From a virus: a stretch of 16,901 bases of DNA. A program made the translations under genes and the position numbers. Location: the IMG/VR virus record IMGVR_UViG_3300035703_000557; one strand, 5' to 3'. Under the pieces are notes generated by a model. The model had not been told where the DNA came from and searched no databases. It saw only the letters and a list, made by a program, of their open reading frames with translations. Below, piece after piece: positions 1-16,901 of this stretch; position 1 is the first letter of the stretch, and every line of letters starts with the position of its first letter.

Positions 1-1491
1 CAGCGGTGCCGGATGCTCAAGTTCGAGCTCCTGCCTTGGCAGGTGCACGCGGCGACGGTGCTGATGGCCCGCCGGCGGGCGGACGACGGCACCCCGGCTA
101 CGCGCTACGCCCTGTGGGTGGTCGCCCGCGGGGCAGGGAAGACGGGCCTCGTCACGGCCCTCCTCGAGTGGATGCTGTGGGAGGGGACCGACCTCGAGGT
201 GTGCTGCGTCGCCACCCAGCAAGACAAGGCGAACATCATCCACGGGCGCATCCAGAAGATGCACCGCGGGGAGGATCGGTGGCGGTTTGTCGGCGGGGGC
301 GGTGCCACCAGCATCGGCCTGATCGAGCACAAGAAGGCGACGCTCAAGGCCATGCCGTGCACGGACAACGCCATGGACGGCATCACCCCGCGGCTGGTGA
401 TCGCGGACGAGGCCGCCCGCATGGACGCCGCAATCCTGCGGGCCATGTCTAGCGTCACCAAGACCCGCACGGGGCAGATGCTGTTCATCACGACCCCCGA
501 CCGGGACCAAAAGACCCGCGAGCTGTGGCCCTACTGGGAGGCCTGCGAGATCGCCCTTGACCAGGACGAGGCCCTGCCCGAAGGGTGGTGGGCGCTGCTG
601 TGGGGCATGGACCCGACCGACGAACCCGACTCCGACCTTGCGGTGCACCACGCCAACCCGTCTGCCGGCGTGCTGATCTCCGTCCGGGACATCCGGACCA
701 AGATTCAGAACGCGCTGAAAACGGCGGACCCAAAGGCCCGGGAGGAGACCTGGCTGCAGGAGCTGGCCACGTTCACCGACGACCTCGCCGGTGCGCTTCC
801 CCTCGAGCTGCTGGACCGCATCTCGGTGGATACCGATTGGGAGATGCTGGAGGGGGCACCCGGCGTGGTGGCGGTGGACTTCAGCCAGGGCGGGTTCTTC
901 TCGGGGTCGCAGTGCGACCTCACCAGCATGTGCGTCGCAGTGTGGGATGGCAGCAAGGTGCACACCCGCGGCTACCACTGGTGGGCCGGCGCGGACATGG
1001 CGCACGACGAGCGGCGCACCCGGCAGCCGCTGGCGCGGTGGGTGCAGGACGGGCACCTGAGCGTGTCCGGGCCGACCATCGACTTTGACGCCGTCGAGGC
1101 CCGCTTGGTCGACGTCTGCCGCCGGTACGACGTCAAAGCGTTCGTCGCCGACCCAGTGGGCAAGGCGTCCGCCTGGGCCGCGCAGATGGAACGCAAGCAC
1201 GGGTGGCGCTGGCACAAGGCCCCGCAGACCATCGTGTGGATGGGCGGCGGGTGGGCCATATGGCAGAACTGGGTGCGTTCCGAGCAACTACGCTGCAAGC
1301 CTGACCCGGTGCTGCGGAGCTGCCTGGCGTCTGCCCGTCTCTACGTGGGCCTCACGGGGCTTGCCATGCCGGTCAAGCAGCGCAGCACCAGCAACATCGA
1401 CGCAGTCACCGCGCAGGTCATGGCCGCCCGTGTCCTGCACGACCTCGAGATCATGGGCGGCAGCATGTACGAATCCCAGCCGGGATTCTGA
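1..1491 (+). CDS. terL: Terminase large subunit, C-terminal 496 codons; the gene starts at about 16541 and crosses the circular junction
   Basis: The frame is open from base 1, so Met at 13 is internal. It carries LLPWQ, a Walker A-like VARGAGKTG and a Walker B-like RLVIADEAARM, which matches Terminase_1-type large subunits. The upstream 78 codons sit in the same frame at 16541-16774. Stop codon is 1489-1491. Confidence 0.9.
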   Translation, partial: QRCRMLKFELLPWQVHAATVLMARRRADDGTPATRYALWVVARGAGKTGLVTALLEWMLWEGTDLEVCCVATQQDKANIIHGRIQKMHRGEDRWRFVGGGGATSIGLIEHKKATLKAMPCTDNAMDGITPRLVIADEAARMDAAILRAMSSVTKTRTGQMLFITTPDRDQKTRELWPYWEACEIALDQDEALPEGWWALLWGMDPTDEPDSDLAVHHANPSAGVLISVRDIRTKIQNALKTADPKAREETWLQELATFTDDLAGALPLELLDRISVDTDWEMLEGAPGVVAVDFSQGGFFSGSQCDLTSMCVAVWDGSKVHTRGYHWWAGADMAHDERRTRQPLARWVQDGHLSVSGPTIDFDAVEARLVDVCRRYDVKAFVADPVGKASAWAAQMERKHGWRWHKAPQTIVWMGGGWAIWQNWVRSEQLRCKPDPVLRSCLASARLYVGLTGLAMPVKQRSTSNIDAVTAQVMAARVLHDLEIMGGSMYESQPGF

Positions 1492-1502
1492 AAGGTAGCA
1501 GC

Positions 1503-1844
1503 ATGAAAAAGAAGGACATTGTCGTACGACTCAGACAGACTGGCGGACTCGATGACAAGCTGCTCAAGGAAGCAGCCGACGCTATCGAGGCATTGCGGAA
1601 ACAGTCAGGAACGCTTGCGGAACATACGTATCGCCTTCGAAACGAGAAGCAGCAGCTCATAGCCGAACGTGATTGGGCTCGCCGAGCTGTGTGCCGAATG
1701 GACGCTCTGATAAGGGTCACAAAGTGCGACGAATACGTGCAGATGAACATGCACGGCCTAGGAGAACTCGTTCACACGACGCCAGAAGAAATCGCATCCG
1801 AGAGGAAGTGGGACTGCTTTGGGGGTGCACATGAGCGAACGTGA
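1503..1844 (+). CDS. Hypothetical protein (113 aa), helical or coiled-coil, in a low-GC island
   Basis: ATG start with AAAGG 8 nt upstream. Local GC is about 50% (30/60 by hand for 1501-1560) against about 70-78% in flanking genes. I recognise no catalytic motif. Confidence 0.55.
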   Translation: MKKKDIVVRLRQTGGLDDKLLKEAADAIEALRKQSGTLAEHTYRLRNEKQQLIAERDWARRAVCRMDALIRVTKCDEYVQMNMHGLGELVHTTPEEIASERKWDCFGGAHERT

Positions 1845-2046
1845 CCAAATGGCGGCAGCGATGCTGCAAGTCATTTTCAACACCTGTTCCAACTGGACAG
1901 GGTGTCAGGAAGATCAAGACGATTGGTACTGGGACGACATGGAATCTGCAGCCGAAGTCGCATACCGGTTGGCCGATGCGATGATGATGGCAAGCTACTC
2001 AACCAAGCAGGAGACGAAATGTACGGCTGCTGTAGACCGAAAGTGA
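1831..2046 (+). CDS. Hypothetical small acidic protein (71 aa)
   Basis: ATG at 1831 follows GGGGGT. The ORF track gives a TTG start at 1819. It overlaps the previous ORF by 14 nt and lies in the same low-GC island. The C-terminal AYRLADAMMMA resembles a motif common in small phage proteins; this is from memory and unverified. Confidence 0.45.
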   Translation: MSERDQMAAAMLQVIFNTCSNWTGCQEDQDDWYWDDMESAAEVAYRLADAMMMASYSTKQETKCTAAVDRK

Positions 2047-2072
2047 TTTAGTGTCTACGCGCTGACTACGGG

Positions 2073-3275
2073 GTGTACTCACATGACCTTGATCAGCGCG
2101 GACACCATGCGCAGCATGGTGCCGTGTCGATCTGGTCCCAGTTCATGCGCTGGTTTTGGCCCACACAGATGGTGTGGTTCAGTGCTTCCGGCGCACGGCA
2201 CCTGAATGCGGACCTGCTCGGCGTGCCCGCGATCATGCGGGCGATCTCGCTCATCTCGACGGACTCGGCGAGGCTGGACATGGTCGTCCACCGTCGCGAC
2301 GGATCGGTGGTGGCCGATTCGCCCGCGCTGACCCTCCTCGAAGGCGAGACCGCCTCACTGCTCTCGGGATTCGAGCTGCGGCGCTGGCTCGCCTCGTCCG
2401 CGCTGACCTACGGAAACGGGTTCCTGTGGATCCGCCGCGATACCGGCACGGGTGAGCCGGTCGCGCTGGACCCCGTCGACCCGACCGTCGTCAGCGTCCG
2501 ACTCGAGGCCGGCGAGGCCGTCTACGTCGTGCACGACAAGGTCGTGGACGACAGCAACCTGGTGCACGTCCGGGCCTTCCCGGATCCCACCTCGCCCTGG
2601 CTCGGCGTTTCGCCGATCACCCAGTGCCGCCGCGTGCTCTCCACGCAGGCCATCATCGACCAGGTCGCCGAGGAGCTGGCCAAGACCGGCTACGTCGGGA
2701 AGCTCGGCATCGAGCACCCCGGCCCGCTGACCGCCAACGCCCGCAATCAGATGCGGGAGAAGTGGCTTGAGCAGCACCACGGCGGCGAGAAGATCGCGTC
2801 GCCCGCGTTCTTCGGCGAAGGCATGAAGGCTGCGCAGCTGGCCGCCGACGCGGCAGGCCGGCTGCTCGACGCCAAGCGGCACGGGGTTGAGGACGTGGCG
2901 CGTGCCTTCGGCATGCCGCCGCAGCTTCTGTACCAGGGCGAAGGGCGCAGCCAGCCCGAGACGGCGCAGGCGTACGTCACGCACTGCCTTGCACCGTTCG
3001 TGGCCGGCATTGACAGGGAGCTCACGCGAAAGCTGCTTCCGCCCGGCCAGATGCTGCACACGGACCTCACCCCGATCACCATCGGCGACTTCCGCACGGC
3101 CGGCCGCGCCTACGCGCAGCTCGTCCAGGTGGGGGTGCTCGCCCCCAACGACGCACGCCGCCGCATGGGCCTCGAGCCGTGGCCCGGACTCGACGAGCCG
3201 AAGCCCGTGATCTCGGGCGTCGACCCCAATCAGAACAACCAGCAGGACGAGGAGCCCGCCGATGCAGCAGCTTGA
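2073..3275 (+). CDS. Portal protein, HK97 family
   Basis: 400-aa ORF directly after the terminase region. SGxxxNADLLGVPAIMRAISLISTDSARLDMVVHRR and NGFLWIRRD look like Phage_portal (HK97-type). Position before the protease/capsid gene fits. The start is uncertain: GTG 2073 or in-frame starts about 50-70 nt downstream. Confidence 0.85.
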   Translation: MYSHDLDQRGHHAQHGAVSIWSQFMRWFWPTQMVWFSASGARHLNADLLGVPAIMRAISLISTDSARLDMVVHRRDGSVVADSPALTLLEGETASLLSGFELRRWLASSALTYGNGFLWIRRDTGTGEPVALDPVDPTVVSVRLEAGEAVYVVHDKVVDDSNLVHVRAFPDPTSPWLGVSPITQCRRVLSTQAIIDQVAEELAKTGYVGKLGIEHPGPLTANARNQMREKWLEQHHGGEKIASPAFFGEGMKAAQLAADAAGRLLDAKRHGVEDVARAFGMPPQLLYQGEGRSQPETAQAYVTHCLAPFVAGIDRELTRKLLPPGQMLHTDLTPITIGDFRTAGRAYAQLVQVGVLAPNDARRRMGLEPWPGLDEPKPVISGVDPNQNNQQDEEPADAAA

Positions 3276-5001
3276 GGTCCGCACCGCGGCCATCGGCGGC
3301 GTCGAAGGCCGCACCCTGACCGGCTACGCCGCGCTCTACAACACGTGGAGCAAGCCGCTGATAAGCATGAAGGGGGAGTTCCGGGAGCAGATCGCCCCTG
3401 GTGCGTTCTCCGGCCAGACGGACAACGTCTCGCTGTTCTACATGCACGACTCGAAGCAGGTGCTCGCGAACACCAAGAGCGGCACGCTGGTGCTCGAGAG
3501 CGACGACAAGGGACTGCGATACACGGCCACGCTCGGGGAGAACACCCGAGACGAGGCGGTGCTTGACCAGGTCCGTCGCGGCCTGCTCACGGAGATGAGC
3601 TTCGGCTTCCGCGTCCCGGAAGGCGGAGACAGCTGGAAGGGACGCGACCGCACGCTGAAGCGTGTGGAGCTCAGGGAAGTGAGCGTCGTCGAGGTCGGTG
3701 CCTACAGCGGCACCTCCGCCGAGGCGCGACAGGAAACGCAACCAACACCACGGAAGGCACCAACAGTCATGGTCAGCAATCTCACGCTCCGCGAAGTCCG
3801 CACCAAGCTCACCGAGCTTGAGCAGCGCAAGTCCGACACCAACCTCTCCGAGGACGCCCGCGCCGACATCGGCTGCGAGATCGAGGAGCTGCGCGAGATC
3901 CGCAAGACGCTGCTCGAGCGTGACGCGGGCGTGCAGGTGGCGGCGACCCCGGCGCGGCGCACCGAGGAGCGGCGCGAGGCGGCCGCCGAGTGGCGCTCGT
4001 CGCGTGAGTACGAGTCGTCCTGGCGCGGCTGGCTGCGCGGCGGCCCGGCCCCCGAGCAGCGCGAGATCATCTCGACGGCCTCGTCGTCGATCCTGATCCC
4101 GAAGCAGACCGAGGAGCAGATCCTCAAGTACATCTCGGCCGAGTCCATCGCCCAGCGTGTGTGCGACTTCCGCACCGTCCGCCAGGGCGACGCCACGCTG
4201 CGCTGGAACACGCTGGAGTCGACCCAGTACACCAACGCCTGGAGCCCGCCGGACACCGGCACGACGGCGGCCACGGACATCGACCCCGGCTTCGCCGAGG
4301 TGTCGCTGAAGCCGCTGCCCATCCTGCCCAAGACGCAGGTGTCGGAGCAGCTGATCAAGTCCGCCAACTTCGACGTCGAGGCGGAGGTCATGGACAACCT
4401 GATGCGGCAGTTCGCCAAGATGAGCGAGGCCGGCTTCATGGCGGGGGTCACGAACGGCCCGAGCAACGCGCTGTTCACCGTCCAGACGGGCACCAACATC
4501 ACCACCGCGACCTCGACGGGCACCAGCCGTGCGCTCGCCGTCACCGCGGCGGCCACCGTCGCCAACCTGATGGACATGCGCTACACGCAGCTCCCCGCGG
4601 CGTACTGGGGCTCTGCGTCGTGGATCCTGCCGAAGGACGTCTACGCCAAGATCGCCGACATCCGCGCCGCGCCGACGGGCAGCAACGTGCCCATCTTCGT
4701 GCCGAGCTCGGACGCCGGCCTGACGCAGGGCGCCAGCGGGTTCCTGCTCGGCCTGCCGGTGTACGTCACGGACTTCCTGCCGACGCACGTTTCGACGGCG
4801 TCCACGGGCAAGAACTGCCTGGCGCTCCTGGGCAACTTCCGAGACAGCTACGCCATCCGGTCGTGGGAAGGCATGACGATGCGGCGTGACGACCTCACCG
4901 CCGCCAACTCGGCCCGCATCGTGTTCCGCGGCTTCGGCTGGGCCAACGCGGCGTTCACCCGCGCCAAGGCCATGGTGCAGCTGCAGGTCACGAACGCCTG
5001 A
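3262..5001 (+). CDS. Prohead protease - delta (scaffold-like) - HK97-fold major capsid protein, fused in a single ORF
   Basis: Residues 1-150 look like an HK97 gp4-type prohead protease. Candidate catalytic residues are His62 (LFYMHD) and Ser113 (LTEMSFGF), spaced as in HK97 gp4. Residues about 170-250 are charged coiled coil (LTELEQRKSD...EIEELREIRKTLLERD). Residues about 260-579 resemble an HK97-type capsid protein. There is no stop anywhere between these parts. Confidence 0.85.
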   Translation: MQQLEVRTAAIGGVEGRTLTGYAALYNTWSKPLISMKGEFREQIAPGAFSGQTDNVSLFYMHDSKQVLANTKSGTLVLESDDKGLRYTATLGENTRDEAVLDQVRRGLLTEMSFGFRVPEGGDSWKGRDRTLKRVELREVSVVEVGAYSGTSAEARQETQPTPRKAPTVMVSNLTLREVRTKLTELEQRKSDTNLSEDARADIGCEIEELREIRKTLLERDAGVQVAATPARRTEERREAAAEWRSSREYESSWRGWLRGGPAPEQREIISTASSSILIPKQTEEQILKYISAESIAQRVCDFRTVRQGDATLRWNTLESTQYTNAWSPPDTGTTAATDIDPGFAEVSLKPLPILPKTQVSEQLIKSANFDVEAEVMDNLMRQFAKMSEAGFMAGVTNGPSNALFTVQTGTNITTATSTGTSRALAVTAAATVANLMDMRYTQLPAAYWGSASWILPKDVYAKIADIRAAPTGSNVPIFVPSSDAGLTQGASGFLLGLPVYVTDFLPTHVSTASTGKNCLALLGNFRDSYAIRSWEGMTMRRDDLTAANSARIVFRGFGWANAAFTRAKAMVQLQVTNA

Positions 5002-5022
5002 TTCATCCTCCATGCACGGCCA

Positions 5023-5051: not shown

Positions 5052-5069
5052 TCGGCCGGGAGCCACCCG

Positions 5070-5348: not shown

Positions 5349-5351
5349 GCG

Positions 5352-5687
5352 ATGGCCGGCGCAGGCTATTTCCGCCAAGTGCTGACGGTGCAGAACCCCG
5401 TCACGACGGTCGACGCGTACGGGCAGGGCTCCGAGGCGTGGGTCACGACCGGGATCATCCGCGGCCACCTCGAGCAGGTCACCAGTGCCGAGGTGGTTGA
5501 TGACGGCGGGCCAGCCGTCCGGCAGGAGTTCTCAATCGAGGCAACCTGGGCACCGAACGTCACCTCGCGCAGCCGGCTGGTGTGGAACGACAACGGCACC
5601 AGCCGCACGCTGAACCTCCGAAGCTGCCATGACGTCGACTCTCGCCGCAAGCGCCTGCGCATGCAGGCCGTCGAGGTGCGGGCATGA
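5352..5687 (+). CDS. Head closure / head-tail adaptor protein
   Basis: 111 aa. The pattern FRQVLTVQNP...VDAYGQGSEAWVT...IRGHLEQVTSAEV...EFSIEATW...SRSRLVW matches the SPP1 gp16 / Phage_H_T_join type family. Confidence 0.75.
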   Translation: MAGAGYFRQVLTVQNPVTTVDAYGQGSEAWVTTGIIRGHLEQVTSAEVVDDGGPAVRQEFSIEATWAPNVTSRSRLVWNDNGTSRTLNLRSCHDVDSRRKRLRMQAVEVRA

Positions 5688-6406
5688 GCGAGATCCGCTA
5701 CAAGATCGACGACGCGGAGGTGCGCAAGGTGCTGTCCAGCCTGCCGCGCAACGTGGCGCAACGCGTACAGAAGAAGGGCATGCGGACGGCCCTGCAGCCG
5801 GTCAGGGACCACCTGCGGCAGCTGTGGCGCAACGCCCAGTTCCGCGGCAAGACGCCCCACCGCAAGGCCATCGCCAGCGCGACCAAGATCGACGTACGCC
5901 GCCATGGATCCGGTCCCCGGGCGGTGATCGCCGGCGAGCTCGGCGTGGTCTACGGACGAAAGGGCGGGGCAGGGGCCAAGGGACGGCAGAAGGTGTGGCA
6001 CCTGCTCGAGCACGGGTTCCGGCATTTCGGCGGCTCGGGCGGCATCTACCTGGGCCGATCGGCCGCCGCGCAGGCCGAGGCAGGAAGCCGGCGGGCGTTC
6101 ATCAAGACCGAGCGTGACCGCGTCATGCAGCAGTTCAAGGGCAATTCCTTTGAGGTGCGGCAGCAGCGTGGGCAGGCCATGAAGGCCGTGTTCGCCGCCG
6201 CCCGTGAACGGTTCCAGGCGTACGCCGCCGACGCCCAGGAGCGCAGGCTAAGGATCAAGAACGTCCGCAGCTCGGGCGCAGGCCGCAACCTGCCGGGCCG
6301 CAAGCTCTCGACCACGTACATCCGCCGCAACATGCGCCGGATCCTCAACGCAATCTCGCAGCAGACGCTGCTCGAGGCCCGTGCGGCGCTGCGAGGCCAG
6401 CCGTGA
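5684..6406 (+). CDS. HK97 gp10-like neck/tail component with a long basic C-terminal extension
   Basis: ATGA overlap with the upstream gene. The N-terminal half (VRKVLSSLPRNVAQRV...WHLLEHGFRH) resembles the gp10 family. The C-terminal 120 aa or so are Arg/Lys/Gln-rich and look helical. Confidence 0.5.
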   Translation: MSEIRYKIDDAEVRKVLSSLPRNVAQRVQKKGMRTALQPVRDHLRQLWRNAQFRGKTPHRKAIASATKIDVRRHGSGPRAVIAGELGVVYGRKGGAGAKGRQKVWHLLEHGFRHFGGSGGIYLGRSAAAQAEAGSRRAFIKTERDRVMQQFKGNSFEVRQQRGQAMKAVFAAARERFQAYAADAQERRLRIKNVRSSGAGRNLPGRKLSTTYIRRNMRRILNAISQQTLLEARAALRGQP

Positions 6407-6801
6407 GCTTGCCCGAGGTCGTGGCTGCCGTCCGCGCCCGCGCTGCGGTCGCGACGTCAAAGGTCTACCCAGGCATGCGCGTCGCCGGCAAGACGACGCC
6501 GTGCATCGTCTACAACGTCGACCTGTCTGCGACCATGTTCCTGCCGGGGTCCATCGGAAGCAAGCACCATTGGAACGGCACGCTGACGGCGACCTGCATC
6601 GCTGACACGCTCGATGCGGCGACCGACCTTGCGTACGAGCTGGCCAAAGCGTTTGGCAGCGGGCCGTACACCCACACCGGCTGCAAGCTGGTCGCGCACG
6701 AAATGTCGTTCTCAACCGGGACCGAGCTGCCGGATGACGGCCAGCAGGACGCCGAGCGCACGGTCACCGTCACGATCAACCTCCAAGCACAGGAAACCTG
6801 A
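6403..6801 (+). CDS. Tail terminator / tail completion-like protein
   Basis: GTGA overlap with the upstream gene. 132 aa. VYPGMRVAGKTTPCIVYNV resembles DUF3168-type proteins. It sits between the gp10-like gene and the major tail protein. Confidence 0.4.
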   Translation: MSLPEVVAAVRARAAVATSKVYPGMRVAGKTTPCIVYNVDLSATMFLPGSIGSKHHWNGTLTATCIADTLDAATDLAYELAKAFGSGPYTHTGCKLVAHEMSFSTGTELPDDGQQDAERTVTVTINLQAQET

Positions 6802-6803
6802 CT

Positions 6804-7196
6804 ATGGGCTACATCATGGGATACGGCGGCACCGTTCAGCTGAATTTCAACAGCGGCGGTGCAACGACGTGGCCGGTACGGAACATTCAGATTCAGGTCG
6901 AGCGAGCGTCGCTGGACGTGACGCTGGTCTCGGATTGGACAGAAAAGCGGCGACCTGGCCGCGTCCGCCGGACGGTGAGCTTCGACCTGCTGGCGCAGGA
7001 TGCATCGATCGATGACCCAGTGCGCGAGCACATCTACCCGACGTCGCTTGCAAACGCGGTCAATCGTTCGGTCGTGGTCGCGTTCAGCGATCAAGCAGGA
7101 AAGGCGTACACGATCACTGGGCACATTACCTCTGCCAGCCGCACCGACGACGGTACTGGGGCAGCGGTGTGGTCCCTCAGCGTGGACGAGGCCTGA
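6804..7196 (+). CDS. Major tail protein candidate (130 aa)
   Basis: The call is positional: after the tail-terminator-like gene and before the chaperone-position ORFs and the tape-measure candidate. AGGAAA lies upstream. The sequence looks beta-rich. No diagnostic motif. Confidence 0.5.
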   Translation: MGYIMGYGGTVQLNFNSGGATTWPVRNIQIQVERASLDVTLVSDWTEKRRPGRVRRTVSFDLLAQDASIDDPVREHIYPTSLANAVNRSVVVAFSDQAGKAYTITGHITSASRTDDGTGAAVWSLSVDEA

Positions 7197-9659: not shown

Positions 9660-9663
9660 CCCC

Positions 9664-10011
9664 ATGCCAAACGCAAGAATCGCCAGCGACATCGTCGGAC
9701 TCGTCATCGTGCCTGGCTGCAGCCGAGACCTGACGGTCGACGTGCAGAATCCAAACGGCACCCCGTTCGACCTGACCGGATACAGCGTCAAGGCCAAGGT
9801 CGAGCTCGGAACGGTCGAGACGACAATCACGGGGACGATCTCCAGCGCAGCTGGAGGCAATTCGAACGTCGTGATCCCGGCGTCGACCACCACGGATTGG
9901 CCCGCTGCCACCAACGGGGTGGTCACGCTGTACGCCGACCCGTCCGCGGGCAGCGAGAACGTGCACATTGCCACTGTCCTGTTCCGTACCTCCGCGGAGG
10001 TGGTCCCGTGA
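9664..10011 (+). CDS. Small tail protein with an Ig-like (BppU-N-like) sequence pattern (115 aa)
   Basis: The ATG at 9664 is 5 nt after the previous stop. DLTGYSVKAKVELG...ITGTIS...VVIPASTTTDW...GVVTLYAD resembles phage Ig-like baseplate domains. Confidence 0.35.
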   Translation: MPNARIASDIVGLVIVPGCSRDLTVDVQNPNGTPFDLTGYSVKAKVELGTVETTITGTISSAAGGNSNVVIPASTTTDWPAATNGVVTLYADPSAGSENVHIATVLFRTSAEVVP

Positions 10012-11618
10012 TTCGGTCGTTTCTTAGGAAAGGTGCAGTTTCCAAGGAAGCCGACTGCCTCGCCACCGCCGAGCCCAACCAGCCGGGCGGCCTGACCGCC
10101 ACGGCCGTAAGCACGACCACGATCTCGTTGTCTTGGACGGCCGACAGCACGGCCGCGCCTAACGAGGCGACCTCCTACGCGGTTGAGAGGTCCATCGACG
10201 GCCTCGGGTCGTGGAGCACCATCGCGACGAACCTCACATCGCCCTCGTACTCGGATGCGTCGCTGTCTGCATCGCAGACGCGGTACTACCGCGTGTCGGC
10301 GTACAACTGCTTCGGCGGTAGCCTCGCCAGCGCGACGGCGAACGCGACCACTCAGGCAGGCGGCCTATCCCCGTCTTGGTCGTTGGACTTCAGCAGCGGC
10401 ACCCCAAGCGGCTACACGCTTACCCGCGCCAGCAGCGGCACCTACCTGGACTCCTCGGGCTACGTCGCTTCGGCGGCCTCGGACATCGCCCGACTGACCC
10501 ACGACAGCAGCGGCACGAGGCTCGGGCTTCTTGTGGAGGAAAGCAGGACGAACGAGGTGACGCAAAGCGCGGACCTCTCCACCACGTGGATCCGCGACGG
10601 AATCCAGGCGTTCGGATCCGGAAGTACCGCAAACGCTGCAACGGCGCCCGACAACACGACGACCGCAGACCTCGTTACGGAAACAACTGTTTCGGGCCGC
10701 CACGGCGTGTATTCAAACGCCAATGGTTTCAATCTTCCATTTAACACGCAGTACACGATTTCCATCTATGCAAAGAAGCCAGCGACAAATGGCCGCGATC
10801 ACGTGTCGGTCGGTGTCAGCTTCGGTTCTGGAAATGGAATCGTCGTATTCGATGTCGTAAACGGCACCTACACGGGCAACAATGGATGGGGCGGCGGCAC
10901 CTTGCACGGCTACGGCATTTCTGCGGCCGGGAACGGGTGGTACCGGTGCACCGTTACCTTCAGTTTCTCTGGCACCGGCAACGCAACTACGGGATCGGTG
11001 CGGGTGGGCCCGGCGATCTCTACCGCAACCAACTCGTTTGGCCTCCCTGCTTACCAAGGGAACGGCACATCTGGCATCCTGTTGTGGGGTGCTCAGATGG
11101 AAACGGGGTCCAGCGCGACGGCGTACATCCCGACGACGACGGCAACAGTTACCCGTAGCGCAGACCTCGCCCACGTCCTGGACTCGTCCATCACCTCCTG
11201 GGGCGACCCCGGTGCCGTGGTCGTCCAGTTCTACCCGCCTGGCAAGGCCGGGACGCTCTTGTCCACCGACGATGCGGCTACCGCGCAGGTGGGCATCGAA
11301 GCCAGCAGCACGACTGCGGCGCGGGCGTTCTGGTCATCGGGCAACACCGCTACGGGAACCATCGGCACCGGAGTGCAGAAGGCCGTCCACTACTGGAACG
11401 GCAGCACGTCGAAGTTCTGCATCAACGGCGGCACGGTGCAGAGCGGCACGAACAACCTGACCATCGCGAACACCGACTTTGTCACGCTCGGCGCCGAGGC
11501 CACAGAAAGCAGCGGGGTGCCGGGGACGTTCTCGCAGTACGCAAACTGCGTGATCCGTAAGGTCGAGTTCTACAGCGGCACCCTGACCGACGCGAACCTC
11601 CAGACGATCACCACATGA
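10008..11618 (+). CDS. Tail fiber / receptor-binding protein: FN3 domain plus ConA-like (LamG/CBM-type) jelly-roll domains
   Basis: GTGA overlap start. Residues about 24-115 are FN3-like (GGLTATAVSTTTISLSWTA...SYAVERS...YYRVSAYN). They are followed by LLVEESRTNEV..S.DL...W, NGWYRCTVTF and LLWGAQMETGSSATAYIPTTTATVTRSADL, which is typical of phage carbohydrate-binding fiber modules. GC is lower around 10700-10900. Confidence 0.6.
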   Translation: MIRSFLRKGAVSKEADCLATAEPNQPGGLTATAVSTTTISLSWTADSTAAPNEATSYAVERSIDGLGSWSTIATNLTSPSYSDASLSASQTRYYRVSAYNCFGGSLASATANATTQAGGLSPSWSLDFSSGTPSGYTLTRASSGTYLDSSGYVASAASDIARLTHDSSGTRLGLLVEESRTNEVTQSADLSTTWIRDGIQAFGSGSTANAATAPDNTTTADLVTETTVSGRHGVYSNANGFNLPFNTQYTISIYAKKPATNGRDHVSVGVSFGSGNGIVVFDVVNGTYTGNNGWGGGTLHGYGISAAGNGWYRCTVTFSFSGTGNATTGSVRVGPAISTATNSFGLPAYQGNGTSGILLWGAQMETGSSATAYIPTTTATVTRSADLAHVLDSSITSWGDPGAVVVQFYPPGKAGTLLSTDDAATAQVGIEASSTTAARAFWSSGNTATGTIGTGVQKAVHYWNGSTSKFCINGGTVQSGTNNLTIANTDFVTLGAEATESSGVPGTFSQYANCVIRKVEFYSGTLTDANLQTITT

Positions 11619-12329: not shown

Positions 12330-12420
12330 CTCGTCATTCCTCGGCTCCCTCTGGTTCGCGCTGCTGCTCGGCTGCATCGGCGTCGGCTTTGGGTTCTGGT
12401 ACTGCCGGAAGTCGAAGTGA
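12310..12420 (+). CDS. Small single-TM peptide (36 aa), holin- or toxin-like
   Basis: The ATG at 12310 has GAAGG about 7 nt upstream. Translation: MPLLADASSFLGSLWFALLLGCIGVGFGFWYCRKSK. GC3 is about 92%. It overlaps the previous ORF by 20 nt. Confidence 0.45.
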   Translation: MPLLADASSFLGSLWFALLLGCIGVGFGFWYCRKSK

Positions 12421-13307
12421 TCAGGCGGTGCTGCTGCGGCGGTGGATCGCAACAGGAGGGGAACTCCGAGTGCGTTCCGCTGTGCACTGGCACCAACGTC
12501 TACAACTTCACCATCGCGCTGTCGCACGAAGGGTGGTCTCGCGGGACTCCGGGAACGGAGAGTGACTTTGAGCAGCCGGCGAGCTGTGCGCCTGGTTGCT
12601 GCGGCGGCCGGTACAAAGAGGTCCGCAAGCGAGAGAACGTCGTCGGAAAGTACACGGGACGTGCGCATGCTGATGGATTGTTTCCGAGCAGCGATCTGTG
12701 TGAATGCTGCAAGATCGATTCAGTGGACATCGTTACGCCAGCCGGCAGCTGGTCCGCAGACTTTGTCTACACGTACGCCACCAACACCATGGTGCGCAAC
12801 AACTACGTGGAGGACTTCAACTACACGAACAGTCTTACGGCGAAAATGTGGACGTGCGTGCTGCACCCGTCAAACGATTATTTCGACTGCCAGTGCGCTG
12901 GTCCGGCAGGGTTGTTTGACGTTCTCGAGATCAATGCTGGCGGCATCAATCTCGTCGACTTTGACTACAACGCGGGCGCTGGAAACTGCGGGTTAGACGG
13001 AACCAGCACGTATTTCTCCAATCACAACGTGAGGCTGTTCTACGTGAAGCCAGTGCCGTTCGCGACCTGTCGGACGCTTGCCGGGACGTACCGCCTCGCT
13101 TGCGCCCGGTACATCGTGCCATATACGCCGTGGGTGTATTGGGGTGCTTTCGGTGCCACTGAGTTGCTGTGCAGCTACCGAAAGTTCGTGAACACGGGCG
13201 GTAGCTGCTGGATCGAGGAGCTGGGCGACTGCTTCGCCAACGACCCGATCTACTCTTGCGGCCCTGACGCCGGTTTTAACGTCCCAAAGACGGTGGTGGT
13301 CACGTGA
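12417..13307 (+). CDS. Cysteine-rich protein of unknown function (296 aa, 21 Cys)
   Basis: GTGA overlap with the 36-aa peptide gene. The N-terminus is MIRRCCCGGGS, with further clusters CAPGCCGG, LCECC and DCQC. Codon third positions favour G/C, so it looks coding, but overall GC is only about 52% (31/60 by hand for 12781-12840). No family recognised. Confidence 0.6.
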   Translation: MIRRCCCGGGSQQEGNSECVPLCTGTNVYNFTIALSHEGWSRGTPGTESDFEQPASCAPGCCGGRYKEVRKRENVVGKYTGRAHADGLFPSSDLCECCKIDSVDIVTPAGSWSADFVYTYATNTMVRNNYVEDFNYTNSLTAKMWTCVLHPSNDYFDCQCAGPAGLFDVLEINAGGINLVDFDYNAGAGNCGLDGTSTYFSNHNVRLFYVKPVPFATCRTLAGTYRLACARYIVPYTPWVYWGAFGATELLCSYRKFVNTGGSCWIEELGDCFANDPIYSCGPDAGFNVPKTVVVT

Positions 13308-13618
13308 GGTACGTGGGCATCCAGGACAACCCGCACCTTCCGGAGGACGTCCGCCGTGACTTGGCCAGGCTCAGGGAGGCCCAAGGCCAGCCAGGCCTGG
13401 GCGACCTCGTCCAGGCGGCTACGACGGCTGCCGGCGTACAGCCGTGCGGGCGGTGCAAGCGCACCCGGGACGCCATGAACCGTCTGACGCCGTCCTGGGT
13501 GCGGCGTGCGCTATCGGCGCTTGGTCTTCGGCCGGCGGGTCGCAAGCCGGATCACCACGTACAGCACGATGGCGAACGGCAGGATCGGCAGGCACCAACT
13601 GACGGCCACCAGCCCTAG
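13304..13618 (+). CDS. Small CxxC protein (104 aa as an open frame; conserved-looking core ends near 13495)
   Basis: GTGA overlap start. GLGDLVQAATTAAGVQPCGRCKRTRDAMNRL has a CxxC motif and high GC3. After about 13500 the frame becomes low-complexity and is antisense to a better-looking minus-strand ORF. Confidence 0.45.
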   Translation: MRYVGIQDNPHLPEDVRRDLARLREAQGQPGLGDLVQAATTAAGVQPCGRCKRTRDAMNRLTPSWVRRALSALGLRPAGRKPDHHVQHDGERQDRQAPTDGHQP

Positions 13619-13657
13619 ACCAATTGCAGCACTGATTACTTCCTCCGGATTCTGCAT
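13511..13657 (-). CDS. Small transmembrane peptide (48 aa); the only plausible minus-strand gene
   Basis: Reverse-strand translation: MQNPEEVISAAIGLGLVAVSWCLPILPFAIVLYVVIRLATRRPKTKRR. This is one TM helix plus a basic tail. GC3 is about 90% over the last 34 codons. No clear SD. It is below the ORF-track size cutoff. Confidence 0.4.
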   Translation of the reverse strand: MQNPEEVISAAIGLGLVAVSWCLPILPFAIVLYVVIRLATRRPKTKRR

Positions 13658-13677
13658 ACGGGGAGTAGACTACCAGT

Positions 13678-13929
13678 GTGGCAAGGATCCCGAAATGGGC
13701 CTCCGACCACCGCAAGGACGTGTGTGAGTTCGGGTGCGTGCTGAAAGCTTCCAGCGACCGCTGGCACGTTGTCACGTACCTTGGCAAGGGGTGGTTCCGC
13801 GGCGGCGTCATGCGCTGGCGGCACGGCCCCAGCTTCGAGCGTGCCCAGGAGTGGTGCGACCGGGTGAACGCCGACAGGGCGAAGTGGCGGCAGCAGCAGG
13901 TGCAGCGGAAGGGTCGCGGCTTTACATAA
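13678..13929 (+). CDS. Hypothetical basic Trp-rich protein (83 aa), first gene of the early/regulatory block
   Basis: GTG start, GC3 about 85%, TAA stop followed by a palindrome. TAGACT lies 6 nt upstream of the start, so the transcript may be leaderless. Confidence 0.5.
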   Translation: MARIPKWASDHRKDVCEFGCVLKASSDRWHVVTYLGKGWFRGGVMRWRHGPSFERAQEWCDRVNADRAKWRQQQVQRKGRGFT

Positions 13930-13938
13930 TCCGGCCGG

Positions 13939-13956
13939 GGTGCCCGACCGGGCACC
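13939..13956 (+). terminator. Palindrome/hairpin after the 83-aa gene (terminator or protein-binding site)
   Basis: GGTGCCCG-AC-CGGGCACC, two 8-nt arms, starting 10 nt after the TAA stop. A 2-nt centre means the real hairpin would be a 6-bp stem with a 6-nt loop. Confidence 0.35.
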
Positions 13957-13964
13957 GAATGTGA

Positions 13965-14004
13965 TTGACCGGACACCATAATGTCGATACCTTGTTGGTC
14001 GACA
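13965..14004 (+). promoter_or_regulatory. Sigma-70/SigA-like promoter with an inverted repeat flanking the -10 element (candidate operator)
   Basis: TTGACC (13965-13970), a 17-nt spacer, then TACCTT (13988-13993). The inverted repeat is TGTCGA (13982-13987) and TCGACA (13999-14004), 11 nt apart, bracketing the -10. It lies 73 nt upstream of the RHH gene. Confidence 0.45.
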
Positions 14005-14076
14005 GGCCCAAGGTCCGGAACGCAGAAGGTCTGCTAATCGGCGATATGGGCCTGCGATTCATGGAGGAATTGCAGC

Positions 14077-14286
14077 ATGTCCCGCAGGAAAGATGAGCGC
14101 CCACAGGTGGTGCAGGACACCCGCGTGCAGGTCGGCCTCGACCGCACGACGAACGACCTGCTGACCGCCCTGGCCAAGTTCGACGGGTCCAGCAAGGTCC
14201 ACGTCATCCGCCAGCTCGTCCGGGCGGCGGCCCGCACCCATTACGGCAGCCTCGAGAACGCGCTGCTGGAGGTGCGCAGTGCTTGA
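14077..14286 (+). CDS. Ribbon-helix-helix (CopG/Arc-like) DNA-binding protein
   Basis: GGAGGA sits 8 nt upstream of the ATG. TRVQVGLD (beta strand) followed by RTTNDLLTALAKFDGSSKVHVIRQLVRAAA (two helices) fits the RHH layout. 69 aa. Confidence 0.6.
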   Translation: MSRRKDERPQVVQDTRVQVGLDRTTNDLLTALAKFDGSSKVHVIRQLVRAAARTHYGSLENALLEVRSA

Positions 14287-14401
14287 CCTCGTCATCATCT
14301 TCGCGACAGTGCTCGGCACCCTGGCGTGGGCCGTGCTCTGCCGCCCCGAACATGAAGCCTGCCGCCCCGTCGACAAGGTCGAGGAGGTGAGCCGTGGCTA
14401 A
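14279..14401 (+). CDS. Small membrane peptide (40 aa)
   Basis: GTG at 14279 overlaps the RHH gene end by 8 nt. Translation: VLDLVIIFATVLGTLAWAVLCRPEHEACRPVDKVEEVSRG. GC3 is about 85%. Below the ORF-track cutoff. Confidence 0.35.
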   Translation: MLDLVIIFATVLGTLAWAVLCRPEHEACRPVDKVEEVSRG

Positions 14402-14708
14402 CCGAAACGTGGTTTCCGACCTCCATCGGGCGGGATGCGATTCAGCGACGAGTGTCGCGGCATCCCAGCCCGATGAGAGGGATCTTTGCTACTACAAGAC
14501 GCTCGGCGCGGCGCTACAGCTCGAGATCGACCGGCTGGAAGTCAAGCAGGCGCTGGCTGCGGAGGTGCTGCGGACCCTCATCGAGCGGTACCGCACGGTC
14601 GTGTCGGACGCCGACGCAGGCAGGCTGGGGGAGCAGGACGCCATCAAGCGCCTCGACAACCTCGCCAACGCAGCATTCCACTCCATCACCAAACTGCTGA
14701 CCCGCTGA
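14394..14708 (+). CDS. Hypothetical helical protein (104 aa)
   Basis: GTG start with GAGGAGG 6 nt upstream. It sits directly upstream of the helicase gene. No motif recognised. Confidence 0.5.
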   Translation: MANRNVVSDLHRAGCDSATSVAASQPDERDLCYYKTLGAALQLEIDRLEVKQALAAEVLRTLIERYRTVVSDADAGRLGEQDAIKRLDNLANAAFHSITKLLTR

Positions 14709-14718
14709 GGGAGGATCG

Positions 14719-16044
14719 ATGCGCATGGCACAGGAACGACGCGAGCGAACGCTCGCGTACGACGCGGCGCGTGCATGGTGTGAGCAGGCGAGGAAGGCGG
14801 AGTACGTGTGGGACGTGGACCAGCACTGCTGGTTCATCAGGTCCGCCACCGGCGTGTGGGAACGCGACCGGCTAGGCCTCGTCCGCAGCGAGATGATCAA
14901 GGCCGCTCAATCTGCCCGCCCCGACGACACCGGGAATTGGGCCCGGTACTTCGACATGGTGGCGACGTGCCAGGACGGCGTCACCATCACACGCGACCAG
15001 TGGGACACCCACATGTACGCGTTCGGTGCGCCGAGCGGCGTCTTCGAGCTGATCGAAGGGTGCTCGCTCGAGCGGGTGTACGACCTGAAGATCACCAAGC
15101 AGGTGGGGGCGTCGCCTGGGGGCTCAAGCGAACTGTGGGAGCGGTTCCTGCTCGAGTGCTGCGAGGGCGACGATGAGGTGGTGTCGTTCCTGCAGCGGTG
15201 GGCGGGCTACGCCCTGTCAGGCCTCACGGTCGAGCACGTGATCCTGTTCGTGCACGGGCCCGGCGGCAACGGCAAGAGCGTGTTCGTGGACACGCTGCGC
15301 CACGCGTGGGGCGAGTACGCCCGCACGATGCCCATGGATGCCCTGATGGAGGCCAAGAACGACCGCCACCCGGCCGAGATCGCCATGCTGGCCGGGGCAC
15401 GGCTTGCCATCGCCACCGAGACGCAGGAGGGCAGGCGCTGGGACGACGCGAAGGTCAAGCAGCTGACCGGCGGCGACCGGATCGTGGCCCGGCACATGCG
15501 TCAGGACTGGTTTGAGTTCGACCCGACGTTCAAGCTGCTGGTGGTGGGCAACCATGCTCCGCAGATCGCCACCGTGGACGATGCCATGCGCAGGCGGCTG
15601 TGCATGGTGCCGTTCAACAACAAGCCGGCCATGCCTGACCCGACGCTTGGGCAGCGGCTCAAGCAGGAGGCCGGAGGCGTCCTACGTTGGGCCATGGAGG
15701 GCTTCGAGGCGTTCAGGCAGGCTGGAGGCCTGAACCCGCCCGAACGCGTCCTGAAGGCAACGCAGGCCTACCTCGACGAGCAGGACACGGTGGGGGCGTG
15801 GCTGCAGGACTGCTGCATCGTCGGGGATGGCGGCTGGACCGCCAGCGCCGACCTGTTCAGGAGCTGGGAAGCCTGGTGCCGAGACGCGGGCATCCATGCC
15901 AAGAGCATCAAGCGCCTGTCGGGCGACCTGGCGCGGCGCGGCATACCGGCCGAGCGGCGCAAGCACGGGCGCGGGTTTGGCAACGTGCGGGTGACGCTTG
16001 GTGACGCATTGGTGACGGATCAACGGGATGGGTACTGGCCGTGA
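14719..16044 (+). CDS. D5_N / P4-family primase C-terminal type SF3 helicase (replication NTPase)
   Basis: GGGAGGA 4 nt upstream of the ATG. D5_N-like LWERFLLECCEGDDEVVSFLQRWAGYALSG. Walker A is HGPGGNGKS and Walker B is ARLAIATE. RRRLCMVPFNNKP follows. This pattern is typical of the phage/plasmid primase P4-family C-terminal domain. Confidence 0.85.
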   Translation: MRMAQERRERTLAYDAARAWCEQARKAEYVWDVDQHCWFIRSATGVWERDRLGLVRSEMIKAAQSARPDDTGNWARYFDMVATCQDGVTITRDQWDTHMYAFGAPSGVFELIEGCSLERVYDLKITKQVGASPGGSSELWERFLLECCEGDDEVVSFLQRWAGYALSGLTVEHVILFVHGPGGNGKSVFVDTLRHAWGEYARTMPMDALMEAKNDRHPAEIAMLAGARLAIATETQEGRRWDDAKVKQLTGGDRIVARHMRQDWFEFDPTFKLLVVGNHAPQIATVDDAMRRRLCMVPFNNKPAMPDPTLGQRLKQEAGGVLRWAMEGFEAFRQAGGLNPPERVLKATQAYLDEQDTVGAWLQDCCIVGDGGWTASADLFRSWEAWCRDAGIHAKSIKRLSGDLARRGIPAERRKHGRGFGNVRVTLGDALVTDQRDGYWP

Positions 16045-16175
16045 TTTCACCTAGGAAACGGCGTTTGGTGACGGATGTGACGCATGTGACGCTTTTTCTG
16101 AGTTACGCGCACACACGCGCACGCGCACACACGAGGTCATATGCGGTGACGCGTCACATGCGTCACCAGCGTCAC
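15991..16175. repeat. Iteron field: 7 direct GTGACG and 3 inverted CGTCAC copies (consensus about kGTGACGCwT)
   Basis: Direct copies start at 15991, 16001, 16012, 16068, 16077, 16086 and 16146. Inverted copies start at 16152, 16161 and 16170. Spacing within clusters is 9-11 bp. 16146-16157 is the perfect palindrome GTGACGCGTCAC. Confidence 0.8.
16104..16133. repeat. 30-nt perfectly alternating pyrimidine-purine tract containing a 13-nt direct repeat
   Basis: TACGCGCACACACGCGCACGCGCACACACG. ACGCGCACACACG occurs at 16105-16117 and again at 16121-16133. The tract is flanked by the iteron clusters and preceded by CTTTTTCTGAGT. Confidence 0.8.
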
Positions 16176-16205
16176 CCAGCCTCAGAGGAGGCAGGAAGGT
16201 GAACG

Positions 16206-16463
16206 ATGAAGCACTGGAAGTCTCCGTGGCCTCAAAGGGCCTCAGAAGCACGTGGGAAGCGGGCGTCCTATGGCGGCAGCTGGAGCCGCCTAAGCCTGAA
16301 GCTGCGGCAGAACAGCCCTCTGTGCCAGCGGTGCGGGATCAACCCAAGCGAGCAAGTGCACCACGTCGTGCCCGTCAGGGCCGATCCAAGGCTCAAGCTC
16401 GACCCACGGAATTGCCTGGTCCTGTGCCGCAGCTGCCACGAGGAGCTGGATCACCCGCGGTAG
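16206..16463 (+). CDS. HNH endonuclease
   Basis: GAAGG 6 nt upstream of the ATG. CQRCG...VHHVVPV...DPRNCLVLCRSCHEEL is a classic HNH/zinc-finger layout. Its position just upstream of the terminase matches HK97-like cos phages. Confidence 0.85.
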   Translation: MKHWKSPWPQRASEARGKRASYGGSWSRLSLKLRQNSPLCQRCGINPSEQVHHVVPVRADPRLKLDPRNCLVLCRSCHEELDHPR

Positions 16464-16465
16464 CA

Positions 16466-16487
16466 CCCCCCGGCAAGGGCCGGGGGG
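16466..16487 (+). terminator. GC hairpin after the HNH stop, overlapping a G9 homopolymer (terminator-like; possibly part of the packaging site)
   Basis: CCCCCCGGC (16466-16474), loop AAGG, GCCGGGGGG (16479-16487). The G run extends from 16482 to 16490. There is no U-tract. Confidence 0.45.
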
Positions 16488-16540
16488 GGGTCAAGAAGGC
16501 CAGGGCACCGCGGTGTGGGTCCGTCGAAACGGGACCATCG

Positions 16541-16901
16541 GTGGGGCCGCCAAGTACAGAGAACGTCGACAGCGGGGAAGCACCTACTTCACCCGGTGAA
16601 CCACCTGCTGCAGCGGCCGTCGACGTCTCGGATGCGTACGCCCGTGGGGTCATCGATGGCACCGTCGCCGCGCCGCGCCGGATCCGGGCCGCGTGCCGGC
16701 GGTACCTCGCCGAGCGGGCGGACCCCGCCGGCCACGGCGTTGCCTGGGACGCCTCCGAGCTCGAGCGGTTCCTGCAGCGGTGCCGGATGCTCAAGTTCGA
16801 GCTCCTGCCTTGGCAGGTGCACGCGGCGACGGTGCTGATGGCCCGCCGGCGGGCGGACGACGGCACCCCGGCTACGCGCTACGCCCTGTGGGTGGTCGCC
16901 C
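16541..16901 (+). CDS. terL: Terminase large subunit, N-terminal part; runs off the window end and continues at base 128
   Basis: The frame is continuous with 1-1491 through the 127-bp overlap. DAYARGVIDGTVAAPRRIRAACRRYLAER...WDASELERFLQRC is typical of TerL N-termini. GTG 16541 is the first plausible start and its SD is weak, so the start is uncertain. Total length would be about 574 aa. Confidence 0.75.
   Translation, partial: MGPPSTENVDSGEAPTSPGEPPAAAAVDVSDAYARGVIDGTVAAPRRIRAACRRYLAERADPAGHGVAWDASELERFLQRCRMLKFELLPWQVHAATVLMARRRADDGTPATRYALWVVA
16775..16901. repeat. Exact 127-bp duplicate of bases 1-127 (circular-contig end overlap)
   Basis: A base-by-base comparison of the two ends matches over all 127 nt. 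The reading frame is preserved across the join. Confidence 0.9.

Follow-up and report, generated by a model that had tools for sequence, protein, structure and literature searches.

The DNA analyzed here is the IMG/VR virus record IMGVR_UViG_3300035703_000557, a stretch of 16,901 nt that we call the window. It carries genes for a large terminase subunit (TerL), a portal protein, a prohead protease fused to the major capsid protein, neck and tail proteins, a tail fiber, a superfamily 3 (SF3) helicase and an HNH endonuclease, with a block of iterons at the end of the helicase gene and a cohesive-end site (cos) between the HNH and TerL genes (Table 1). All convincing genes lie on the plus strand, as judged from codon-position GC content (GC3 of about 0.9, with GC1 above GC2). 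The HK97-fold capsid, portal and TerL genes place the element among the tailed phages (Caudoviricetes), and a predicted tail tube together with the absence of a sheath points to the siphovirus type. We consider it likely that the window holds the complete genome of a cos mini-siphovirus that is autonomous, does not integrate and belongs to an uncultured family. Read in this way, it provides a resolved map of a minimal tailed phage (ends, origin, virion module and host-range genes) for a lineage that is common in metagenomes and has no cultured member.

An initial annotation, made by a model from the letters alone, had proposed a gene list of which TerL, portal, protease/capsid, head closure, helicase, HNH, fiber and tube were borne out; its ribbon-helix-helix (RHH) regulator, g22, matched no model. 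The absences that it listed (integrase, repressor, DNA polymerase, small terminase subunit (TerS) and endolysin) were reproduced with Pfam, PHROGs, NCBIfam and PADLOC, and the same scans found no primase. PADLOC returned no defence or interference gene in the window, only generic HNH matches, and neither partition nor toxin–antitoxin families were detected by the Pfam, PHROG and PADLOC scans. The window contains no tRNA and no Rfam family, and scans for sigma-70 promoters and intrinsic terminators stayed at background level. The whole unit had no megablast match in INPHARED, a comparison that the initial annotation had suggested, and when the capsid fusion, portal, fiber and helicase were compared with the same collection by tblastn, all matches were distant, the closest cultured phage portal being ~25% identical.

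Table 1 Genes and other features of the 16,901-nt window
Feature	Position	Strand	Basis or remark
TerL, 3′ part (ATPase and nuclease)	1..1491	+	Pfam TerL_ATPase 2.9e-06 and TerL_nuclease 5e-11, both past cutoffs
Accessory block g02 (1503-1844) and g02b (1819-2046)	1503..2046	+	Replaced in relatives
Portal protein	2169..3275	+	Pfam Phage_portal 2.6e-54; independent gene call; alternative start at 2073
579-aa fusion of S78 prohead protease and HK97-fold major capsid protein	3262..5001	+	Pfam Peptidase_S78 4.6e-35 (residues 4-158) and Phage_capsid 9.6e-28 (residues 277-575)
g05, putative adaptor	5070-5348	+	Position only; conserved family-wide
g06, head closure protein	5352-5687	+	Pfam Phage_HCP 2.8e-08; phrog_25 Hc1
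g07 (240 aa) and g08 (132 aa), putative neck/tail-completion proteins	5684..6801	+	Position only; family core genes
g09, predicted tail tube protein, 130 aa	6804..7196	+	Orthologs at 42-47% identity
g10 (7196-7498) and g10′ (7495-7662)	7196..7662	+	Chaperone position; both conserved
g11, tape-measure-like, 183 aa, Ala-rich, helical	7664..8215	+	Position and composition; family-conserved
g12 (8215-9135), g13 (9132-9659) and g14 (9664-10011), putative tail-tip/baseplate proteins	8215..10011	+	Core genes
g15, tail fiber/receptor-binding protein, 536 aa, FN3 domain	10008..11618	+	phrog_5939 'tail protein' 1.9e-54
g16, 95 aa	11615..11902	+	phrog_18574 1e-4; small open reading frames (ORFs) at the same position in other clades
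g17	11899-12192	+	Lipoprotein signal (LSSC) and C-terminal transmembrane segment (TM)
g18	12189-12326	+	One TM, basic tail
36-aa ORF	12310-12420	+	One TM, basic tail
g19, Cys-rich, 21 Cys (7.1%)	12417..13307	+	N-terminal RRCCCGGG; KPVPF motif
Small early/regulatory genes g20 (13304-13618), g21 (13678-13929), and g22 to g24	13304..14708	+	g20 is a core gene
g22	14077-14286	+	RHH-like beta-alpha-alpha pattern; core gene
g23	14279-14401	+	One TM
g24	14409-14708	+	Core gene
g25, SF3 helicase	14719..16044	+	TIGR01613 primase_Cterm 1.5e-76, 257 bits (cutoff 109); Pfam DUF5906, D5_N
Putative replication origin	15991..16175	.	Iterons flanking a spacer
g27, HNH endonuclease, 85 aa	16206..16463	+	Pfam HNH 2.6e-08
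C-tract/G-tract hairpin	16466..16492	+	Between HNH stop and cos
cos cohesive end, 12 nt, predicted 3′ overhang	16509..16520	+	CGCGGTGTGGGT
TerL, 5′ part	16541..16901	+	Continues at 128 (16775-16901 = 1-127)

Closure and cohesive ends of the genome

Self-comparison of the window showed that bases 1–127 and 16775–16901 are identical, leaving a unique unit of 16,774 bp with 66% GC. Because 127 is also the largest k-mer of metaSPAdes, the repeat reads as the mark of a path closed by the assembler and not as a biological terminal repeat. TerL runs in one frame across the junction from a GTG start at 16541, giving a 574-aa protein that an independent gene caller also called on an identical contig (L026). 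The identical ends, the length of the unit and the passage of terL across the junction all stand as initially described, the junction from 16774 to 1 being read through by at least six independent assemblies (the IMG/VR contigs L004, L010, L013, L021, L022 and L023), among them a permuted full circle (L022). Comparison with close relatives drew on 24 IMG/VR contigs with a capsid identity of 85–98%.

A circle of this kind could also arise as an artefact, from a prophage fragment or a piece of a bigger phage genome that a repeat had closed falsely, and the 127-bp overlap was indeed made by the assembler. However, closure at this junction and at this length recurs independently in many samples and with different assemblers, cos-to-cos linear contigs of 16.8–16.9 kb exist, and the TerL ORF is unbroken across the junction. 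Host genes are absent from all relatives inspected, and host flanking sequence is absent from the window and from ~80 related loci. This explanation is effectively refuted, and the initial description of a complete genome rather than a prophage fragment holds.

Every true contig end of the relatives was then mapped onto the window. Left ends fell at exactly 16521 in L005, L006 and L015 and at 16520 in L027, and L018 (76% identity) begins with the homologous CCGTCGAA. Right ends fell at exactly 16508 in L040 and L046, which are the opposite ends of the L006 and L018 contigs (16,885 and 16,812 bp, respectively); L044 ends in ...GGGCAC followed by adapter-like sequence, and the remaining contig ends of the window clade are scattered. 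The right genome end is thus 16508 (...AGGGCAC) and the left end 16521 (CCGTCGAAAC...), and the 12-mer CGCGGTGTGGGT between them is kept in junction-spanning contigs and missing from cos-ended linear contigs. The same arrangement recurred in a clade with ~50% protein identity, where five contigs end in ...GGGCAC (three mapping exactly to position 7024 of L028; the right ends of L047 and L058 were assigned from their terminal sequence) and three further contigs start 12–13 nt after that end, skipping the homologous 12-mer CGCCTTGTGGGA.

Contig-end pile-ups at exact bases that skip a 12-mer thus mark fixed genome ends in two clades, and they point to a linear molecule in the virion, whose 12-nt 3′ cohesive end lies between the HNH and TerL genes. 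The 3′ polarity is suggested by the loss of the 12-mer, as opposed to its duplication at both ends, because end-polishing removes 3′ overhangs in this way. The genome initially described as complete and circular is therefore complete, and circular as a map only: the circle describes the assembly and the replicative form, and the virion DNA appears to be linear and cos-ended. Reads from annealed, replicating or concatemeric DNA would bridge cos and yield the assembly circle. As a method, piling up contig ends across samples yields exact physical ends from public assemblies alone.

The cos site lies 45 nt past the HNH stop and 20 nt ahead of the TerL start, and these 20 nt are all that separates cos from TerL; no TerS family match was found in the window or its relatives. 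An HNH gene stands next to cos in the ~50% clade as well. HK97, whose packaging reportedly requires its HNH protein, resembles the window in carrying an HNH gene at the right end beside cos and a Terminase_1-type TerL, and in its HK97-fold capsid, S78 protease and 3′ overhangs. In contrast to HK97, the window has no TerS gene between cos and TerL, a genome 2.4 times smaller and a protease fused to the capsid protein. By analogy, g27 is presumed to be the cos-cleavage cofactor of TerL. The C-tract/G-tract hairpin upstream of cos keeps its stem while loop and stem sequence vary in L013, L004 and L021, and is also present in the ~50% clade; the region 16455–16545 folds with −29.4 kcal/mol (z = −4.2). 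We infer that it is a candidate terminase recognition element, transcript end or both.

Two further observations concern this region. In L044 (IMGVR_UViG_3300042453_002211), the last 19 nt of the right end read ...TAGGGCAC followed by TAATGATACGGCGACCACG, with the change exactly at the predicted right cos end; we take TAATGATACGGCGACCACG to be the start of the Illumina P5 adapter, that is, untrimmed adapter. In some relatives, the HNH stop and the hairpin are set apart (window 16457–16466) by an AT-rich insertion of 118 nt that contains inverted repeats, located at L004:4226-4342, at L021:4836-4952 and at the start of L016; the HNH C-terminus differs there too. The insertion may be a miniature mobile element, or it may serve as an alternative element with a regulatory or cos-accessory role.

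Replication module, relatives and search for chromosomal copies

The product of g25 covers only positions 400–742 of the 759-position PRK07078 model and, by its domain matches, is the helicase half of the P4-type primase-helicases without a primase domain. Direct GTGACG(C/G) iterons at 15991, 16001, 16013, 16068, 16077 and 16086 are followed by a spacer, consisting of a T-rich stretch and a (CA/CG)n run, and then by inverted iterons at 16151, 16160 and 16169. Eight of the 16 GTGACGC sites in the window fall within the 185 bp that straddle the end of the helicase gene (shuffled expectation, 7 per window). The iteron block is almost invariant in six relatives, in which the flanking genes show wobble-type variation, and divergent clades keep the layout; the two arms of L028 have switched in concert, to CTGACGC/GCGTCAG. 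An ORF of 53 codons, g26 (16041–16202), was rejected as a gene since it overlaps the near-invariant block, which is probably non-coding origin sequence.

Origins of Staphylococcus aureus pathogenicity islands (SaPIs) reportedly consist of iterons flanking a spacer. The rep-ori modules of SaPIs and other phage-inducible chromosomal islands (PICIs) and of P4 share with the window an SF3 initiator of the P4 primase C-terminal family and iterons that flank a spacer just 3′ of the gene. Unlike those elements, the window has neither a primase domain nor a separate primase gene, and a full set of virion genes surrounds the module. On this analogy, we infer that the iteron block is an origin bound by the adjacent helicase, with g25 as the presumed origin-binding initiator. 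The spacer itself (16094–16145) contains an alternating purine–pyrimidine run, CGCGCACACACGCGCACGCGCACACACG, after a T5 tract; it is Z-DNA-prone, unlike the usual AT-rich unwinding element, and is kept in divergent clades (L063:10686-10712). A sister clade represented by L080 (jgi 3300042516, 16,357 bp; capsid ~72% identical) has the same virion genes and, in place of the SF3 helicase, a different replication module (L080:13726-14812) with a weak HTH_36 match.

Relatives of the window form a compact size class. The identical capsid protein occurs only on contigs of 16.76–16.79 kb, and 438 capsid and 82 tube homologs lie almost all on contigs of ≤18.5 kb. Clades at ~50% identity conserve the gene order from TerL to the fiber as well as g17, g20, g22, g24, the helicase and the HNH gene. 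The concern that homologs might always sit within larger phages is not borne out, as the relatives are not parts of larger genomes. Contigs of 31–37 kb were considered as larger genomes or integrated copies and rejected, one being a concatemer and one a chimera. In L028 (jgi 3300034167 Ga0335017_0000137, 37,374 bp), two strain variants are joined head to tail as a concatemer whose period is 16,525 bp, positions 1–2397 matching 16526–18916 at 98.9%. L033 (ena ERZ27313502 k141_454961, 31,081 bp) is the chimera, in which L033:1-3905 derives from an unrelated phage with a P22-type portal, joined inside TerL. L032 (33 kb) starts at the same cos-proximal position and has about twice the unit length, so that it is probably a concatemer too. 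Within L028, the first copy lacks an ERF-family recombinase (L028:20051-20830) and further accessory genes that another copy has; in L033, the joint creates a 647-aa hybrid TerL ORF, either a misassembly via a conserved terminase segment or a real recombinant.

The initial annotation had also advised looking for the element integrated in host genomes. Two scans of 185,579 species genomes (one genome each), made with a few peptide patterns only, detected no integrated copy; their sole match was an 11-kb contig of a metagenome-assembled genome (MAG) that is the phage itself. A gene transfer agent was considered and rejected, as the element has its own replication module and cos and is absent from the genomes scanned with those patterns.

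An iteron origin with an initiator of a type common to plasmids and P4, the absence of an integrase and the presence of small putative DNA-binding proteins (g22) would also suit a phage-plasmid, a temperate, non-integrating element kept as a low-copy circular episome by its helicase/iteron origin and small regulators. Closed and permuted assemblies are common, and MAG binning took in two relatives, each as a contig of its own. However, lytic replication also predicts junction-spanning reads, and the binning of an 11–16-kb contig into a MAG is weak evidence. Moreover, the scans described above detected no partition, toxin–antitoxin or repressor family, no related capsid occurs among the 72,556 plasmid records of PLSDB, and the genes occupy one strand with no divergent immunity region. 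A phage-plasmid is, on balance, an unlikely identity for the element. The helicase has homologs in Ralstonia, Methylobacterium and Acidithiobacillus phage, and it alone has plasmid or megaplasmid homologs.

Virion module, fiber and candidate lysis genes

The head genes follow TerL in the order portal, protease–capsid fusion, putative adaptor and head closure. In the L080 sister clade, protease and capsid are separate genes with a 4-nt overlap (L080:3056-4812). Because L080 differs in both respects, the fusion and the replication module are labile in the evolution of this family. Neither g07 nor g08 had a family or PDB match with PHROGs, NCBIfam and profile searches against PDB sequences, and the profiles of the g07, g08, g09 and g22 families returned nothing from PDB sequences, or only spurious kelch, occludin and giardin matches. 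The neck and tail orphans had no NCBIfam match. When 55 orthologs from divergent relatives were scanned, Pfam and PHROG together recognized only fibers and tailspikes.

The tail tube was assigned through relatives of g09, which itself has no direct family match. Its ortholog P0181 matches Pfam Phage_tube_2 with 29.9 bits (cutoff 27), P0169 and P0179 lie just under the cutoff, and orthologs also match DUF2001, another tail tube family, weakly. We therefore call g09 a tail tube from these ortholog matches to Phage_tube_2, one of which passes the gathering score. No tail sheath family appeared in any Pfam or PHROG scan of the window and its relatives. A programmed −1 frameshift between g10 and g10′ was rejected, as the window lacks a conserved slippery heptamer and g10′ starts from an ATG of its own that overlaps the stop of g10. 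The tape-measure-like g11 has no family match in PHROGs or NCBIfam, and its length suggests a very short tail. For g12, a structural model (pLDDT 70) had no significant PDB neighbor by Foldseek; the weak ones are nearly all of the tail-tube fold, tail-tip or Dit proteins, and in BFVD the model resembles uncultured-phage proteins at a TM-score of ~0.7, with weaker tail- or Dit-like matches. The product of g14 matches phrog_1084.

The fiber, g15, is 34% identical to the RcapMu tail fiber, and its central part is variable, with the alignment to relatives breaking at ~10350–11100. In some relatives, the fiber is replaced by a tailspike, as in L032:10070-12046, which encodes a 658-aa protein with a pectate-lyase fold (Pfam Pect-lyase_RHGA_epim). 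This swap indicates that members of the family switch between adsorbing to protein receptors and to polysaccharide receptors. The small g16 may be a fiber-associated protein.

Besides the middle of the fiber, relatives vary at 1500–2040 (g02 and g02b) and at 11960–13390. Right after TerL, g02 and g02b have a GC content of 59–61%, against 66–69%, and divergent relatives lack orthologs of them, which is what an accessory ('moron') insertion of recent origin would be expected to show; g02b has a weak match to phrog_2201, at its C-terminus. In the 11960–13390 block, sequence is replaced and architecture kept in every sub-lineage, namely a protein of ~97 aa that combines a lipoprotein signal and an invariant lipobox Cys with a TM near its C-terminus, followed by two TM peptides of 36–46 aa with basic tails. 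From this conserved arrangement, g17, g18 and the 36-aa ORF form a candidate lysis cassette. Unimolecular spanins of the T1 gp11 type are defined by an N-terminal lipoprotein signal with a lipobox Cys and a C-terminal TM. The topology of g17 matches that definition; its periplasmic part, however, is only ~58 aa and by eye looks more helical than beta-rich, and it stands in a neighborhood without an endolysin.

The next gene, g19, has at the same position in relatives counterparts of 289–467 aa (4–9% Cys) that start with (K/R)(K/R)CCC(G/Q/S)G and share the core KPVPF..CRTL.GTY, for example L022:831-2189, L006:12803-13672 and L033:15482-16765. Only six representative clusters were found among 1.84 billion proteins. 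An AlphaFold2 model is all-beta (pTM 0.71) and had no significant PDB neighbor, the best being secretin and aerolysin sheets (E = 0.1, TM-score ≤ 0.15). We rejected g19 as an endolysin: Gly, Pro, aromatic, Arg and Lys residues and a single Cys are invariant, and a conserved acidic/His catalytic set is missing.

Across the family, Pfam, PHROGs and NCBIfam recognized neither an endolysin nor a holin in any member, and release presumably involves g17, g18 and the 36-aa ORF. A family devoid of any peptidoglycan hydrolase, with non-enzymatic or otherwise unprecedented lysis, or a satellite that has its own tail and relies on a helper for lysis, seems distinctly improbable. In the hydrolase-free case, the three tiny membrane proteins and lipoproteins may act in the manner of the lysis proteins that ssDNA and ssRNA phages encode in a single gene, or the hypervariable, Cys-rich, all-beta g19 may be a new kind of effector.

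Comparison with cultured phages and satellites

At 16,774 bp, the unit sits at the low end of tailed-phage genomes, in agreement with the initial annotation and in a size class already known from Rhodococcus phage RRH1, Arthrobacter cluster AN, Microbacterium cluster EE and freshwater miniphages. The cultured analogues are clusters EE and AN, to which sequence comparison suggests a remote relationship only. Cluster EE phages (Orlajensenviridae, e.g., Anseraureola, ON108642) are plaque-forming, with 17.4 kb, 25 genes, ~68% GC and no tRNA; they have a 3′ cos overhang, a capsid–protease fusion and a terminal HNH gene, and neither an annotated TerS nor any replication gene. Their left arm encodes terminase, portal, capsid/protease fusion, neck, tube, chaperones, tape measure and minor tail proteins, and their right arm lysis genes, small regulators and HNH. 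The window resembles them in size, 3′ cos overhang, left-arm order, fusion, terminal HNH and lack of an annotated TerS. However, the portal is only 24%, the protease domain 27% and TerL 20% identical, and nothing else aligns; with these three alignments and no megablast match, the element falls outside Orlajensenviridae. Cluster EE further differs in having a 702-aa tape measure, compared with 183 aa for g11, a recognizable endolysin, no helicase or origin, some regulators on the reverse strand and a Gram-positive actinobacterial host. The smallest cultured siphoviruses, cluster AN (15.5 kb on average) and RRH1 (14.3 kb), have a fused protease–capsid gene; both have actinobacterial hosts, and cluster AN phages have lysis enzymes identifiable in two genes. 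They resemble the window in being small and made up mostly of virion genes with that fusion, and no close similarity was detectable in INPHARED.

Satellites come into question from the same gene set. PICIs of the capsid-forming type (cf-PICIs) carry genes for their own capsid, protease, portal, connectors, TerL, TerS and HNH, use helper tails and integrate by means of an integrase. The window is of similar size and contains all of that packaging set except TerS, a resemblance that the initial annotation had pointed out. It does not extend to the defining features: unlike a cf-PICI, the window has conserved tail tube, tape-measure-like and fiber genes, and it lacks an integrase, TerS and, among the genomes scanned, chromosomal copies. 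The element is not a cf-PICI.

The Streptomyces satellite viruses MiniFlayer and MulchRoom (14–17.4 kb) have their own structural genes and HNH and lack key replication genes. A satellite of this kind, with its own capsid and tail and in need of a helper for lysis, TerS or replication enzymes, would match the window in size and gene number (MiniFlayer has 17,449 bp, 26 genes and no integrase), would explain why endolysin, TerS, primase and polymerase were not found, and would share the HNH, TerL, portal, protease/capsid and connector set that cf-PICIs also use. However, the window has an initiator helicase and its own origin, unlike MiniFlayer, no sequence relationship to these viruses was detected in the phage collection, and a recognizable tube and fiber as well as the tape-measure-like gene are conserved family-wide. 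No interference or defence genes were found, no candidate helper came to light in an analysis that did not extend to co-occurrence, and the three membrane proteins look as if they belonged to a lysis cassette. That TerS and replication enzymes are missing is no evidence of helper dependence because the plaque-forming cluster EE phages also lack annotated TerS and replication genes; these autonomous phages share the missing annotations, endolysin excepted. We regard a satellite as quite unlikely. Of the autonomous mini-phage, phage-plasmid and satellite that the initial annotation had left open, all can still be entertained, although unequally, with satellite and phage-plasmid the less likely.

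Several points weigh against an autonomous cos mini-siphovirus. The tailed particle is predicted, the virion being known here from its genes, and g07, g08, g10, g11, g12 and g13 are named from position or weak structural hints. The 3′ polarity of the ends is deduced from assembled contigs, which have lost the 12-mer, rather than from reads. Endolysin, holin and TerS are recognizable in no family member, and a real loss would mean helper dependence.

For the mini-siphovirus that we favor, the packaged DNA would be a linear molecule of 16,774 bp bounded by 12-nt 3′ cohesive ends, which would anneal upon entry. The helicase g25 would bind the GTGACG iterons 3′ of its own gene and open the spacer, and host primase and polymerase would then copy the DNA, as in SaPI and P4 rep-ori modules. 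TerL and HNH would cut the concatemers at cos, as in HK97, and DNA would enter a small HK97-fold capsid built from the self-processing protease–capsid fusion. Neck, tube, the very short tape-measure-like protein, tip proteins and the variable fiber would form a short, non-contractile tail. Such minimal autonomous tailed phages would show how few genes a siphovirus needs and could serve as a small engineering chassis; known phage size limits and the picture of satellites are unchanged by the finding.

Weak hints point to a Gram-negative bacterium of Pseudomonadota as the probable host, namely the RcapMu-like fiber, the helicase homologs, the protein with lipoprotein signal and TM, and a relative that bears the label of a Pseudomonadota MAG. 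Among the smaller core genes, g22 shows a conserved beta-alpha-alpha pattern with a G-S-S turn and nothing more, and had no RHH match among Pfam, PHROG-function, NCBIfam and PDB profiles. A capsid relative on a 17.3-kb contig, P0069, was found among records of 'Uncultured Caudovirales phage', as were structural relatives of g12. Kavagutti et al. (2019) described freshwater 'miniphages' with a peak of complete genomes at ~15 kb, an account of the size class only (<15 kb) that does not treat ends, origin or gene content, and the records probably come from that study. The product of g20 carries a GLGD...KPCG.CK.R motif (phrog_32048) that is present in all clades beside the Cys-rich protein.

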